Shown here piece by piece: positions 51,356 through 56,905 of a DNA stretch of 64,000 nt (position 1 is its first letter; every line of letters starts with the position of its first letter). This stretch comes from Escherichia phage 04086, in sequence record OR842557; one strand, 5' to 3'. The translations under genes and the position numbers were made by a program. A model generated the notes under the pieces. That model saw nothing but the letters and a program-made list of their open reading frames with translations, was not told where the DNA came from and made no database searches.

Positions 51356-51892
51356 ATGAGCTTATATGATAATTTGATATCCAATATTGATTGGTTTAAA
51401 AATAGCGGTCTTTCCCATGAAACCAATTCAGTTCTTTATAGAATTCGCCAAGACCTAGGCTATTCAAACGATTTCTTAAGCAGAACATCTAGCCGTGGCG
51501 ATACTACCAAATTACCTTTTATTTTTGCTTTAGCTGAAGACCTTTCTTTTGAAGATGCTTTGGAAATTATTGACGTAAATCTGGCTATTCAACGAGTGGA
51601 ATTCGCTGGACTACGTTATTCAGTATATTCTCTAAACGAGAGCGCTGATTGTGTGCTTCTTAATATGGCAGACGATGATTACCATTTAGTATGTTATGTA
51701 GCTTTAGAAAATGGTGATGTATTTGGAATGGTTGACCGCCGTCCATCTTACTCTGATATTAAAAATTATGATAAAGCCGAGCTTGGTATCTTAACTACTG
51801 AGTACACATTAGAAAGTCGTAAACAACAACGTAAGCTTAATCGTTTTATTGCTGAATGTCGCGAATACGCTAAAGAGGTTCAAAATGCATAA
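51356..51892 (+). CDS. Hypothetical protein
   Basis: 178 aa ORF with RBS ggaggag; C-terminal region contains RFIAECR. Confidence 0.5.
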   Translation: MSLYDNLISNIDWFKNSGLSHETNSVLYRIRQDLGYSNDFLSRTSSRGDTTKLPFIFALAEDLSFEDALEIIDVNLAIQRVEFAGLRYSVYSLNESADCVLLNMADDDYHLVCYVALENGDVFGMVDRRPSYSDIKNYDKAELGILTTEYTLESRKQQRKLNRFIAECREYAKEVQNA

Positions 51893-52238
51893 GCCTAGTA
51901 AAACCGACCCTGGTTACGCATTAGCAGATTATGATATAGCTATTTCCTTATTCCTCGGCATTGCTACTAGTATGACTGCAGGGATAATTGGATTTCTTGT
52001 CGGTGGGATTATTAATGGTATGCCTCGCCATCCGTTTGAAGATATGAGCCTTGCATGGATTTGGGTTCCGGCTTTAATAGGATTTTTTATCCCATGGGTC
52101 TTTGATATTGCCCAAACTAATAAAATAAACAAGCCACGTAAAAAGAGATATGCTTTAGCTATGGCTAATTATAATGAGTATGTAAAACAAACTAAACGTA
52201 ATGACCTTGAAACCTTTATTAAGGAATGTAAATCATGA
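51885..52238 (+). CDS. Small membrane protein with C-terminal FIKECK tail
   Basis: ORF track 51849; ATG at 51885 after RBS agagg; two hydrophobic helices; C-terminus NDLETFIKECKS. Confidence 0.5.
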   Translation: MHKPSKTDPGYALADYDIAISLFLGIATSMTAGIIGFLVGGIINGMPRHPFEDMSLAWIWVPALIGFFIPWVFDIAQTNKINKPRKKRYALAMANYNEYVKQTKRNDLETFIKECKS

Positions 52239-52525
52239 ATAAAATTGAAATTGAAATCCCTGAATACAACAGCGCGCTGTCTGCAGAAAAGGCTATCTAT
52301 GCTCTTCTGAATAAAGTGAATACCATCGAACATGAATGTGAAGCCATTGCCGATAAGTATGGTATTCAATTCGGAACCGGTGATTATGGTTCAGGCCGTA
52401 CATATTATCCTGTCGGTTATGAATGCTCCCAGTGGTTTAAAGATGAAATTGAAAACAATGGCGGTGAAGTTGAAAACGGTGTCGTTACAGTTGGTGCTTG
52501 GGTCTCCTCTTCGGCAATGTGCTAA
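52235..52525 (+). CDS. Small protein, member 1 of tandem paralog family (C-terminal WVSSSAMC)
   Basis: 96 aa; coupled start; C-terminal W-V-S-S-S-x-x-C shared with the next four ORFs. Confidence 0.55.
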   Translation: MNKIEIEIPEYNSALSAEKAIYALLNKVNTIEHECEAIADKYGIQFGTGDYGSGRTYYPVGYECSQWFKDEIENNGGEVENGVVTVGAWVSSSAMC

Positions 52526-52534
52526 GGAAACGCT

Positions 52535-52816
52535 ATGATGAATGATTACCGTAAAAATAAAGAGCTGGCTGAAGCAGTAAATGATATTCATAAAGCTATT
52601 CGTCGTGCTGAGGAAATTGCTAACAAATATGAGACTCATTTTAATATATACCCTGCTCGCGGTATGGGCGGTGACTATTATTCTCCTGGCGCCCTGAAAG
52701 CCGACCTTGCCCACTGGGAAGAATACGGTGAAGCTCAGTACGCTATTGTAAACCAACATGATTACACTACCAGCCTAGAAAATGGTGGATGGGTATCCTC
52801 TTCTTCTGAATGTTAA
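52535..52816 (+). CDS. Small protein, member 2 of tandem paralog family (C-terminal WVSSSSEC)
   Basis: 93 aa; junction tgctaaggaaacgctATG; conserved C-terminal motif. Confidence 0.55.
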   Translation: MMNDYRKNKELAEAVNDIHKAIRRAEEIANKYETHFNIYPARGMGGDYYSPGALKADLAHWEEYGEAQYAIVNQHDYTTSLENGGWVSSSSEC

Positions 52817-52825
52817 GGAATTATT

Positions 52826-53023
52826 ATGTCTCGTGAACTAGATTGTGCAATCCGGACCGCTGCTGCGGCTATTGAAAACGTTATCCAGATTTGCAAAGAA
52901 GAACGTGAAGAAGCTGATATCTACATCGATGGTCAACGTGACCTGGAACGTCATATCACGCTTTATAACGGTTGTATTACTATTAGTGGTACCTCTTGGG
53001 TGTCCTCCTCTTACGAATGCTAA
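52826..53023 (+). CDS. Small protein, member 3 of tandem paralog family (C-terminal WVSSSYEC)
   Basis: 65 aa; conserved C-terminal motif and junction sequence. Confidence 0.55.
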   Translation: MSRELDCAIRTAAAAIENVIQICKEEREEADIYIDGQRDLERHITLYNGCITISGTSWVSSSYEC

Positions 53024-53032
53024 GGTAATAAA

Positions 53033-55323: not shown

Positions 55324-55335
55324 TTGCACAAAACA

Positions 55336-55364
55336 GTGTACAAGGTCTATAGGTGTGATACTAT
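55336..55364 (+). promoter_or_regulatory. Early promoter cassette (GTGTAC-N17-TACTATAGACCTATCAAAAC)
   Basis: Near copy of the cassette at 46235 (caaggtctatagg..gatactatagacctatcaaaac). Confidence 0.5.
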
Positions 55365-55401
55365 AGACCTATCAAAACAACAGAGTGAAATGGAGAATAA
55401 A

Positions 55402-55614
55402 ATGAAACTTTCTAACCAAGCAATCAACATGTTAAACGAAGTTCGTGCAGCTGGTGCTAAATGCCTGATGGTTAACACTCGTGACGGTGACCTTCGTCAA
55501 GCATTTGGTGAATTGAAATCTGCTGACCTGGTTAAATGTTCAGTTGGTATTGGTAACGCACTTCGTGTATCCTTATCTCCTAAAGGTAAAATGTACTTTT
55601 TCAACAAAAAGTAA
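55402..55614 (+). CDS. Hypothetical small protein
   Basis: ORF track 55324 overlaps the promoter; ATG at 55402 after RBS ggagaataaaATG; 70 aa. Confidence 0.45.
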   Translation: MKLSNQAINMLNEVRAAGAKCLMVNTRDGDLRQAFGELKSADLVKCSVGIGNALRVSLSPKGKMYFFNKK

Positions 55615-55628
55615 GTGAGGAAAATATT

Positions 55629-56318
55629 ATGAACGGTCCGAAAACTTTTAATTCTCAAGCTCGTGCAGTCGGTGGTTTTGCTCAAGATATCAGTAATGAT
55701 ATGATTAAAAATGAGCCTATGTTCTTTAATTGCGATGCTTATTTTGCTCATAAACACGGTGGTCCTATTACTCGTAGCTTTATTGAAAACCTGCCTGAAG
55801 ATTGGCAATGTGGCCCTGATATTGTATTTGATTCCCGTGTACACATGTTAATGCCTGGCTGGTACCCTGCTATCCCAGGTTATCACCATGATGACGTACC
55901 GCGCCCGGATATTCCAGTTGGCCAACACTTTATTACTGCAGGGCAACCTGATTATGATAATCCTCGATACCATTCTGAACATATTCTTGGTCTTGTTAAC
56001 GCTGGTGTGTGTCCTACCCATTTTGCAACCGGAACTGCACAGTTCAGTCAGATTCCTGAAGGCGAACTTATCTATCGCCAGTGGCATAAAGAAGTTCTGG
56101 AAAAAATTGAGTCCAATGAATTAACCAAGTGGGATGCTCCTGACCGCACGTTGCTCCAGTTTGATTGGCAGACATGGCATACAGGTTCTCGTGCAGTAAG
56201 TAATGGGTGGCGCTGGTTTGGTCGTGTGTCTCGTAATACAGACCGTGTTAAAAAGATTACAAATGAAATCCGCGTTAATGCTCAAGTATATCTGGAATTC
56301 CCTATGGAGGGCTGGTAA
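55629..56318 (+). CDS. Hypothetical His/Asp-rich protein
   Basis: 229 aa; RBS gaggaaaatattATG; clustered His and Asp (YHHDD, YHSEH) suggest a metal site; no confident family. Confidence 0.5.
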   Translation: MNGPKTFNSQARAVGGFAQDISNDMIKNEPMFFNCDAYFAHKHGGPITRSFIENLPEDWQCGPDIVFDSRVHMLMPGWYPAIPGYHHDDVPRPDIPVGQHFITAGQPDYDNPRYHSEHILGLVNAGVCPTHFATGTAQFSQIPEGELIYRQWHKEVLEKIESNELTKWDAPDRTLLQFDWQTWHTGSRAVSNGWRWFGRVSRNTDRVKKITNEIRVNAQVYLEFPMEGW

Positions 56319-56905
56319 TGGCCCTTTATGAACCTGGTTGTATGGGTATTGATACAAACTTCATCCGTCGGTCGGAAAATGCTGGAATTATTATCCCAAG
56401 TGGTGAGACTATGATTATTAAAAAGTCCTGGCGAAATATTGATGATGGTGATGAAGGAATTTCAGCCAGTACAATAGATTGGTCAGGTTGTACTGCCGAA
56501 ATGAAACAGCTTTTAATTGAGGAATATAAAATGGGCTATATCGTAAATGGCTGGCAAGCGGAACCACATAAAGAACAGACTCCAGACCCATTGATTTGTT
56601 ATAGCAAAAAATACGGCTTCCGTGCATGGAGTGATGAATACGACAAATTGGTGAGTTCTAGATTCTATGTTTGGATGGGTATATTATTTTTCCCACTCCT
56701 AGGGTTTTTCCTGACAACAGATAATGACCTGCCTATTTGTGTATTCGCTTCAGCGATGTCTGCTGCTATCTTAGGTCTTATCGCATCATTTTTATGGACA
56801 TCGGTTATCGAAGTACCTTTTCGTATTTCTAAAGTTAAAAAGGTATATGATGATATCACTAAGAAAAATACATTAAACTCTTTTATTAAGGAATGCCGTA
56901 AATGA
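56318..56905 (+). CDS. Membrane protein with C-terminal FIKECRK tail
   Basis: 195 aa; two transmembrane helices near the C-terminus; tail NTLNSFIKECRK parallels 51885..52238. Confidence 0.5.
   Translation: MALYEPGCMGIDTNFIRRSENAGIIIPSGETMIIKKSWRNIDDGDEGISASTIDWSGCTAEMKQLLIEEYKMGYIVNGWQAEPHKEQTPDPLICYSKKYGFRAWSDEYDKLVSSRFYVWMGILFFPLLGFFLTTDNDLPICVFASAMSAAILGLIASFLWTSVIEVPFRISKVKKVYDDITKKNTLNSFIKECRK

Follow-up and report, generated by a model that had tools for sequence, protein, structure and literature searches.

The e-cluster of Escherichia phage 04086 was analyzed within a 64,000-nucleotide (nt) stretch of sequence record OR842557, referred to below as the window. As judged by sequence comparison, a common peptide, called the tail here, ends otherwise unrelated small proteins in one co-oriented block reaching from e.6 to nudE, namely T4 e.5, e.3 and e.2 and further families. 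The segment 51300-57200 was closest to the JS98/Bp7-like T4-type phages (Dhakavirus), with 91-97% identity over the whole query in megablast. In the annotated relatives Bp7 and UGJNEcP3 the gene order is e.6, at least five hypothetical genes, e.2, a small open reading frame (ORF), nudE, the lysozyme gene e and denV. The coordinates of the features are collected in Table 1.

The genes of the block were identified by family, similarity and position. ORF 56318-56905 gave a full-length match to phrog_2203 (E=1.5e-70), matched the annotated e.2 genes of Bp7, JS98, T4 and RB69 in tblastn and sits immediately upstream of the small ORF and nudE. PF26896 was recorded on all e.2 homologues in a precomputed annotation, and the local copy of Pfam gave no match. 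ORF 51885-52238 matched phrog_2330 over its full length (E=6.5e-44), the PHROG that also holds e.3 of T6 and RB69, and was 23% identical to T6 e.3 over 99% of the query (tblastn). This e.3 homologue is a protein with two transmembrane (TM) helices, encoded next after the gene in the e.5 position. The latter, ORF 51356-51892, directly follows e.6, as e.5 does in T4. The PHROG of T4 e.5, phrog_2607, matched it only with E=0.0036 over 29 residues, and in BLASTP against T6 e.5 the tail alone aligned (LNRFIAECREYAKEV versus LEKFVKECREYVKTI). It would be an e.5 equivalent by position and tail only. Dhakavirus differs from T4 in having no e.4 and in a gene set of ~4 kb inserted between e.3 and e.2; this set was found in the window, in RB69 and in locus L019, but not in T4 or T6.

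An earlier sequence-only reading of the window had pointed to a shared ending on three ORFs. The three tails were confirmed: both membrane proteins end in L-x-x-FIKEC[KR] and one further residue, and RFIAECR lies nine residues before the end of the third protein. The residues preceding FIKEC required a minor correction, as they are N(D/T)L and not (N/T)L. Two TM helices were recovered from hydropathy in each membrane protein (residues ~18-45 and 56-76 in e.3, ~116-134 and 138-164 in e.2), and the helices of the AlphaFold2 (AF2) model of e.2 (residues 105-132 and 138-194) agreed with two hydrophobic helices. Apart from the tail the two proteins were unrelated, as the reading had supposed. Only the last 18 residues were aligned by BLASTP, and only the last 15 columns were aligned when the e.2 and e.3 families were compared by hhalign (E=2e-5).

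The same reading had stressed a nucleotide string, TTTATTAAGGAATG, shared by the 3' ends of the two membrane protein genes. The string was indeed present exactly twice in the 64 kb, even at two mismatches, but the count alone was not significant, as 45 of 100 shuffles of the window gave at least two matches to the 14-mer at up to two mismatches. Each copy lies 6 nt before the ATGA stop/start overlap with the next gene. At the protein level, translation of the window in six frames yielded three matches to the expression F[IV]xEC[RK], each at the C-terminus of one of the three ORFs; 200 mononucleotide shuffles averaged 0.075 matches and never gave more than 1. It is the protein motif, and not the DNA string, that carries the signal.

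With a relaxed pattern a fourth tail bearer emerged, ORF 53711-54061, the ending of which is DKLFLEYCRSDVQL, also written KLFLEYCRSDVQL. When the window was scanned with a hidden Markov model (HMM) of the tail, four ORFs rose above noise (18.1, 17.3, 14.4 and 9.5 bits, next 4.5), the score of 9.5 bits belonging to the fourth bearer. Scores of 17.3, 17.1, 14.4 and 8.2 bits (next 6.2) were obtained for a whole Dhakavirus genome, and 19.4, 17.1, 16.0 and 12.6 bits (next 7.2) for a whole Mosigvirus genome. All matches above noise in the window and in both genomes were C-terminal and located in the e-cluster. The strict expression had one match outside the tails in the whole Dhakavirus genome, which was internal and presumably due to chance.

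Table 1. Positions of the e-cluster features in the window; TM boundaries are approximate and predicted
Feature	Position	Strand	Remarks
Sigma-70-like promoter match	50642..50670	+	TTTACA-17-TATAAT, 11/12; best match upstream of e.6; consensus match only
e.6 homologue	50714..51307	+	197 residues, helical; directly precedes the tail-bearing genes in every locus examined
e.5-position protein	51356..51892	+	178 residues, soluble; phrog_8788; ends ...RKLNRFIAECREYAKEVQNA-stop
Tail core FIAECR of the e.5-like protein	51845..51862	+	Sequence tttattgctgaatgtcgc
e.3 homologue	51885..52238	+	117 residues; phrog_2330; ends ...NDLETFIKECKS-stop; C-terminus also given as ...KRNDLETFIKECKS-stop
TM helices of e.3	~51936-52019 and ~52050-52112	+	Then a basic helix of ~40 residues, predicted to be cytoplasmic, up to the tail
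Tail core FIKECK of the e.3 homologue	52215..52232	+	14-mer of the sequence-only reading at 52215-52228
Fourth tail bearer	53711..54061	+	116 residues, soluble; tail core 54026-54043; ends ...DNDKLFLEYCRSDVQL-stop
e.2 homologue	56318..56905	+	195 residues; phrog_2203; ends ...KNTLNSFIKECRK-stop; C-terminus also given as ...KKNTLNSFIKECRK-stop
TM helices of e.2	~56663-56719 and ~56729-56809	+	Preceded by an N-terminal cytoplasmic domain with W..DDGD.G......DW..C
Tail core FIKECR of the e.2 homologue	56882..56899	+	14-mer at 56882-56895

The motif was kept in all homologues found, instead of being absent from them as the sequence-only reading had considered, and in each family the tail was the best-conserved part. 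Homologues of e.3 down to 50% identity retained LE[TI]FIKECKS, and those of the e.5-like protein retained RFI[AKT]ECREYAK. A profile search of 1.84 billion representatives yielded 19 relatives of e.2. All 13 of those inspected, down to E=4.5e-4, end in [F/W]-I-x-x-C-R. The e.2 alignment, in which the members are 23-40% identical to the window protein, has seven invariant columns (W38, D42, G47, W55, I190, C193 and R194), and three of the seven lie in the tail. The homologue searches for e.3 and the e.5-like protein gave close relatives only; more remote members were reached through the profile search and by way of the e.6-anchored loci. When a 25-residue tail peptide was used in tblastn, only e.2 orthologues were retrieved, the method being too insensitive.

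Loci were gathered by means of the neighboring gene e.6 and not by means of the motif, which gave 30 loci of T4-type phages. An ORF was counted as a bearer if [F/W/Y]-[I/V/L]-x-x-C-[R/K] occurred within 25 residues of its stop, on the coding strand and just downstream of e.6. One to five bearers were found per locus, all just downstream of e.6. From 35 related loci and the window, 119 distinct bearers were collected and, after their tails had been removed, the bodies fell into 23 BLAST clusters, soluble and two-TM proteins among them. The consensus was Φ(L/I/F/V/M)-x-x-[F/W]-[I/V/L]-x-x-C-[R/K], after which K or a few further residues usually come; the whole peptide is ~10-15 residues long. 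In T6, T4 and RB69 the tails are FVKECR/FIMECR in e.5, FVSDCR/FVIDCR/FIKECR in e.3, FITECR in e.2 and FIKECR in RB69ORF133c. A shifted variant, FVKE-SR-C or FVKE-IR-C, is found in e.4 (T6, L003 3127-3519; RB69, L005 1198-1572). Two of the 30 loci, L030 and L031, presumably belong to Aeromonas phages, and by sequence the range of the motif looks like one from coliphages to these.

The codons of the conserved residues were then compared. Cys was encoded by TGC 47 times and TGT 43 times, and Phe by TTT 63 times and TTC 23 times. All six Arg codons were used (CGT 25, AGA 24, AGG 18, CGC 8, CGA 6 and CGG 1). This variation matches the rest of the genome, and it means that selection acts on the protein sequence, since the codons vary freely at the conserved residues. 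Codon identity between tails was 0.433 for paralogues of one genome versus 0.419 for different genera, so that no homogenization of DNA within a genome was seen. The free codons together with the equal identity within and between genomes exclude a recent duplication, gene conversion or a linker acting at the nucleotide level. Thus neither a duplicated DNA module nor a recombination scar, as put forward in the sequence-only reading, was sustained, the DNA flanking the two 14-mers being dissimilar as well. Its idea of a common C-terminal module, possibly an interaction tag, held as far as the module is concerned, as the tail is the most conserved part of families with at least 23 body clusters unconnected by BLAST; an interaction tag is a possibility. 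We are highly confident that a C-terminal motif conserved at the protein level is common to unrelated families.

Further, the properties of the peptide itself were considered. The position three residues before the Phe was hydrophobic in 80 of 90 tails; then come F/W, I/V/L, two free positions (often K/E and then E), C, R and often K. On a helix projection L(-3), F(0), I(+1) and C(+4) fall within an arc of 100 degrees, and the hydrophobic moment of the tails peaks at 100-120 degrees, with 0.52 versus 0.34 for shuffled tails. In the AF2 model of e.2 the second TM helix runs to residue 194 with moderate confidence (predicted local distance difference test, pLDDT, ~68-69 over the last 20 residues). 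It was predicted that the tail is an amphipathic α-helix, one face of which carries L, F, I and C. Where related genes have variants of the tail, I, L or M stands in place of the Cys (FLKEIRK, FAKELR and WIKEMK), and the Cys therefore behaves as a hydrophobic core residue and not as an obligatory ligand. The two-TM bearers had on average 2.67 Lys and Arg residues in the N-terminal flank, 0.44 in the loop and 2.49 in the C-terminal flank. Such basic flanks around a short, nearly uncharged loop indicate, by the positive-inside rule, a topology with both termini inside. The tail of the two-TM members is accordingly predicted to be cytoplasmic, 27-53 residues beyond the second TM helix.

The tails of e.3 and e.2 overlap with the putative ribosome-binding sites (RBS) of the next genes. 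In both, the K-E codons AAG-GAA contain AAGGA (52221-52225 and 56888-56892) 9 nt before the next ATG (52235 and 56902), with an ATGA overlap at 52235-52238 and 56902-56905. Judged by an RBS-like element 5-10 nt ahead of a start codon that overlaps or adjoins the preceding stop, each of the two genes forms a putative translationally coupled pair with its neighbor, the RBS being inside the upstream gene. The exact identity over 14 nt exists because both tails have the same five residues and both use AAG-GAA, which doubles as the Shine-Dalgarno (SD) sequence AAGGA, a case of dual coding. Under the codon usage of the window, p is ~0.08 for two tails with these amino acids to agree in all F-I-K-E codons. 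Most e.2 relatives have FIEECRK, with E-E in place of K-E; in terms of the genetic code, and not as read from their DNA, GAG-GAA would keep the AGGA core. Where the protein continues for three more residues (CRKLK, CRKIK), the RBS is on TGY-AGG-AAA, the codons of C-R-K, and AGG, otherwise rare, is accordingly enriched among the Arg codons. According to a crude automated call, an SD-like element was inside the motif in 52 of 103 distinct tails, and in 51 it was elsewhere or no downstream gene was near.

It had been considered in the sequence-only reading that RBS and stop constraints alone might explain the motif. In the window, the tails of the e.5-like protein and of ORF 53711-54061 carry the motif with no RBS in it. 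The gene following the former has its RBS, AAAGAGG (~51871-51877), outside the motif and 9 nt farther along, and the gene following the latter starts at 54105, 44 nt away. No promoter- or terminator-like site and no stem-loop better than chance was found at any tail. The tail of e.4 looks like FVKECKS with a two-codon insertion after the Glu (GAA-TCA-CGA-TGC). This insertion would move the start of e.3 from 1 to 6 nt behind AAGGA and displace the Cys; the RBS of e.3 thus seems to have altered the motif at the end of e.4. The RBS sets the choice of codons (AAG/GAG-GAA) and the free positions, but not F, I, C and R.

The tail stays constant while the bodies diverge, and it is present on unrelated bodies in one co-oriented block, hence a recognition element is the simplest reading. 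We proposed that the tail is a cytoplasmic amphipathic docking or assembly helix, a proposal that we consider about evenly balanced between being right and wrong. An exposed short amphipathic helix on unrelated soluble and membrane bodies would serve as the recognition element, and either one common partner would bind all bearers or the bearers would bundle with each other at the inner membrane face. In L030 and in the metagenomic locus L023, e.6 and a tailed e.5-type protein were found, with no membrane bearer in the searched flank downstream of e.6 (8 kb and ~4 kb, respectively). Since these loci keep the tail, an obligatory pairing with membrane proteins is less likely than self-association or a partner that the host or all these phages possess.

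Several points weigh against the docking helix. The role and the candidate partner are hypothetical. The structure models are weak: the mean pLDDT of e.2 was 61, with the N-terminal domain below 50, and the e.5-like model, with a pLDDT of 36, was unusable. The Cys of e.4 is displaced by two residues, which would turn it to a different side of the helix. Weak full-length relatedness was seen between some of the two-TM families, e.3 with e.4 (E=0.004) and RB69 133c with the C-terminal half of e.2 (E=8e-4), and part of the tail sharing may be plain paralogy. The expression used to collect bearers requires C and R/K, which inflates these two positions of the logo; the unbiased support comes from the family alignments and the whole-genome HMM scans. 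Additionally, no entry of Pfam (local copy), NCBIfam, PADLOC or PDB covered any bearer.

Among the alternatives, the tail as an inherited remnant is the most probable, though itself unlikely. All bearers would then descend from one ancestral gene or from repeated fusions of a single helix, and the tail would persist because it caps the fold or homo-oligomer of each protein, a common partner being absent. The weak similarities just given would fit such a descent, and so would the constant architecture of two TM helices, 27-53 residues and a tail, as well as the heptad-like hydrophobic spacing that was noticed by inspection between the second TM helix and the tail. However, the soluble and membrane bodies have nothing else detectable in common, and the same F-I-x-x-C-R cap at invariant columns is hard to explain for unrelated folds.

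It is rather improbable, though conceivable by analogy, that the tail is a stability tag, that is, a common C-terminal degron or a signal for a protease or chaperone that would give the early gene set one lifetime. Comparable signals are the basic C-terminal ClpX signals of the MuA type and those of FtsH substrates. Such a tag would be a special case of recognition by a common partner; it would suit the C-terminal position, the basic residues after the Cys (CRK, CRKLK, CRRARK) and the grouping of all bearers in a single co-oriented block with one promoter-like site at its head. In the e.5-type proteins, however, 5-24 residues separate the motif from the C-terminus, an unusual arrangement for a terminal degron, and beyond the basic residues no similarity to characterized degrons was seen.

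A role of the Cys as a shared metal ligand, a redox or disulfide site or a site of covalent modification is very unlikely. The residue is invariant in the alignments of the e.2, e.3 and e.5-like families, and with several bearers per genome (2-5) a multi-Cys site across chains is conceivable. The replacement by I, L or M in the variants and by S or I in e.4 speaks against it, as does the predicted cytoplasmic location in the case of disulfides.

An element acting at the DNA level was judged slightly less credible still, be it a recent duplication, a recombination scar or a micro-homology linker for cassette shuffling of the PeSL (promoter-early/stem-loop) kind. The block is hyperplastic, and the ~4-kb gene set between e.3 and e.2 varies among phages; two e.2 alleles differ only between the N-terminal domain and the tail, a natural e.4::e.2 chimera (P0077) exists, and shuffling mediated by PeSL is documented in these phages (PMC4122927, PMC2839356). 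Nevertheless, the equal codon identity within and between genomes, the freely varying synonymous sites, the dissimilar flanks and the missing promoters and stem-loops at the tails all contradict it, and the junction of P0077 lies inside the TM region and not at the tail. PeSL cassettes are intergenic, conserved at the nucleotide level and located at gene borders in hyperplastic regions of T4-type phages (PMC4122927, PMC2839356). They resemble the tails as short conserved sequences that recur at gene borders where genes are gained, lost and swapped. The tail was rejected as a PeSL cassette because it is coding, conserved at the amino acid level only and free of promoters and stem-loops.

The comparison with the capsid-targeting sequence (CTS) of the T4 internal proteins was pursued further. 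The CTS is the extreme N-terminus, the first 10 residues, and gp21 cleaves after L/I-X-E (PMC9026906). Like the tails, the CTS of IPI, IPII, IPIII and their polymorphic relatives is a terminal peptide of ~10 residues on unrelated, fast-evolving small proteins in the same hyperplastic part of the genome. Both peptides are helix-compatible, in both F-I follows a hydrophobic residue at the same distance, and both are conceptually an address label (PMC3012670, PMC9026906). They differ in that the CTS is N-terminal, with an obligatory Glu cleaved by gp21 and no Cys-Arg, while the tail is C-terminal, with a dispensable Glu and an invariant C-R. Half of the tail bearers are membrane proteins, unlike the CTS proteins.

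The idea that the tail itself serves in capsid targeting or gp21 processing, as a C-terminal counterpart of the CTS of internal proteins (MKTYxEFIxE, with cleavage behind L/I-x-E), was barely plausible. Hydrophobic residues are spaced alike in the two peptides (Y-x-x-F-I-x-E in the CTS, L-x-x-F-I-x-E in tails), the FIAE of the e.5-like tail equals that of the L019 CTS (MKTYKEFIAE), and two ORFs with CTS-type N-termini of internal proteins, 48731-49195 (MKTYNEFLTE) and 59319-59678 (MKTYQQFITE), flank the e-cluster in the window. However, the tail Glu, found in three of the four tails of the window, is present in only 41 of 90 distinct tail DNAs, H, Y, G, S, K, L, M, D, N, Q and R taking its place in relatives, and the invariant C-R has no counterpart in the CTS. 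Cleavage after the Glu would take off just 2-13 residues and leave the helix on the protein, and integral membrane proteins cannot be packaged. The two CTS-type N-termini of the window were not among the 16 best matches of the tail HMM and did not rank above noise; the Φ-x-x-F-I spacing alone was in common. Membership of the tail in the CTS class was rejected, all tails being within 25 residues of the C-terminus.

Finally, the view that the tail is a by-product of translational coupling, its residues dictated by the downstream RBS and start, is the least credible and the RBS as the sole cause is effectively refuted: the AAGGA placed 9 nt before both ATGA overlaps, the K/E alternation in e.2 relatives that would keep AGGA, the half of the tails with an SD-like element and the apparent change of spacing at e.4 agree with it, but F, I/V, C and R belong to no RBS, Arg uses all six codons, two tails of the window keep the motif with no RBS overlap, and so does the other half of the tails under the same crude call.

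The docking helix can also be set beside better known terminal peptides. Encapsulin cargo-loading peptides and the MIM helices of ESCRT-III subunits are short, often amphipathic terminal peptides that let one receptor recognize unrelated proteins. Their likeness to the tail is a functional analogy only, with no sequence similarity.

The protein encoded by e.6 gave no match in Pfam, NCBIfam or PDB. Its C-terminus (51278-51304) fits a relaxed tail, Φ-x-x-Y-[IL]-x-x-L-K-stop, with Tyr for Phe and Leu for Cys, and the ending is kept from coliphages to L030 as [I/V/L]-x-x-Y-[I/L]-x-[S/G]-L-K. Throughout the genome of CLBP2, the relaxed pattern was fitted only by e.6, the e.5-like protein, e.3, e.2 and two other small ORFs (130268-130450 and 39015-39263, with ...ALVEYLNGLKA and ...VRHFIITLK before their stops), which are unrelated to the bearers. 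A relation between the ending of e.6 and the tail is suggestive only. The protein was also tried as a PspA/ESCRT-III-like receiver of the tails and was rejected on sequence comparisons: no PspA_IM30 was found in Pfam and no relative in PDB, and hhalign gave a probability of 0.2% with an E. coli PspA sequence. The promoter-like match upstream of e.6 may mark the start of a transcription unit from e.6 to e.

Some observations were made on the genes of the block and its surroundings. The e.2 gene is a mosaic, in which the N-terminal domain and the tail are common and the part from about residue 98 through the TM hairpin and the helix before the tail occurs as two alleles, a Dhakavirus type and a T4 type (P0040 and P0043-P0045 versus e.2 of the window). 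P0077 joins an e.4 N-terminus to the C-terminal half of e.2. In the T4 reference record (L004, 4001-4489) e.2 is split by an apparent frameshift, and the part with the tail (FITECRKLK) is in another frame.

Between e.3 and e.2 lies an array of five tandem paralogous ORFs of 65-96 residues (52235-52525, 52535-52816, 52826-53023, 53033-53245 and 53256-53480), the first of them belonging to phrog_899; the array is absent from T4 and T6. All five end in G-x-W-[V/F/Y]-[S/T/P]-S-S-x-x-C, with the Cys as the very last residue. RB69 and L019 have copies too, and the G, W, S, S and final C hardly vary in any of them. The same insert encodes a DUF7277+DUF7275 protein (54286-55323) and a protein of 229 residues assigned to no family (55629-56318), both conserved. 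The slot between them, 55324-55614, varies by phage: it is occupied by the tailed two-TM ORF133c in RB69 and by a TM protein ending in NFAKELR in L019.

Upstream of the block, 49219-49794 encodes a DUF7338 membrane protein. A hairpin-forming 18-mer, TTGCTGCAATCGCAGCGG, is repeated on the minus strand at 48574-48591 and 48783-48800, which suggests tandem internal-protein paralogues. Downstream, an ORF of 250 residues for an HNH + NUMOD3 homing endonuclease (57594-58346) lies between nudE and e and overlaps the start of e (58318). No gene occupies this place in Bp7 or UGJNEcP3, therefore the ORF is probably a mobile insertion.

The shared ending is real and larger than the sequence-only reading had seen. 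In the searchable literature, queried by gene names and motif strings, no mention of the motif was found, and in the records consulted T4 e.2-e.5 are annotated as conserved hypothetical (e.2-e.4 as predicted membrane proteins), with no shared motif indicated. A C-terminal motif uniting T4 e.2, e.3 and e.5 with many further families is apparently undescribed. The e.2-e.6 genes are conserved across T4-type phages, and no function is assigned to them in the records and libraries consulted; a common C-terminal peptide under strong selection is the first concrete handle on them. It predicts that the proteins act together or through one partner, and it offers a peptide bait as well as clean point mutants (F, I, C, R). 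It also illustrates dual coding clearly, as the same bases specify a protein motif and serve as the RBS of the following gene.

More tentatively, and with less confidence than in the docking helix as such, it was proposed that the tail is a second postal code of T4-type phages. The C-terminal L-x-x-F-I-x-x-C-R helix would send a changing set of unrelated early proteins (soluble e.5-type, two-TM e.2/e.3-type and possibly e.6) to one hub or to a membrane complex at the cytoplasmic face, and new accessory genes would join by acquiring the tail. The tail would account in this way for unrelated genes of the hyperplastic region plugging into one function. If the partner were a host protein or a phage hub, the tail would represent a previously unrecognized targeting system in a virus that ranks among the most thoroughly studied.

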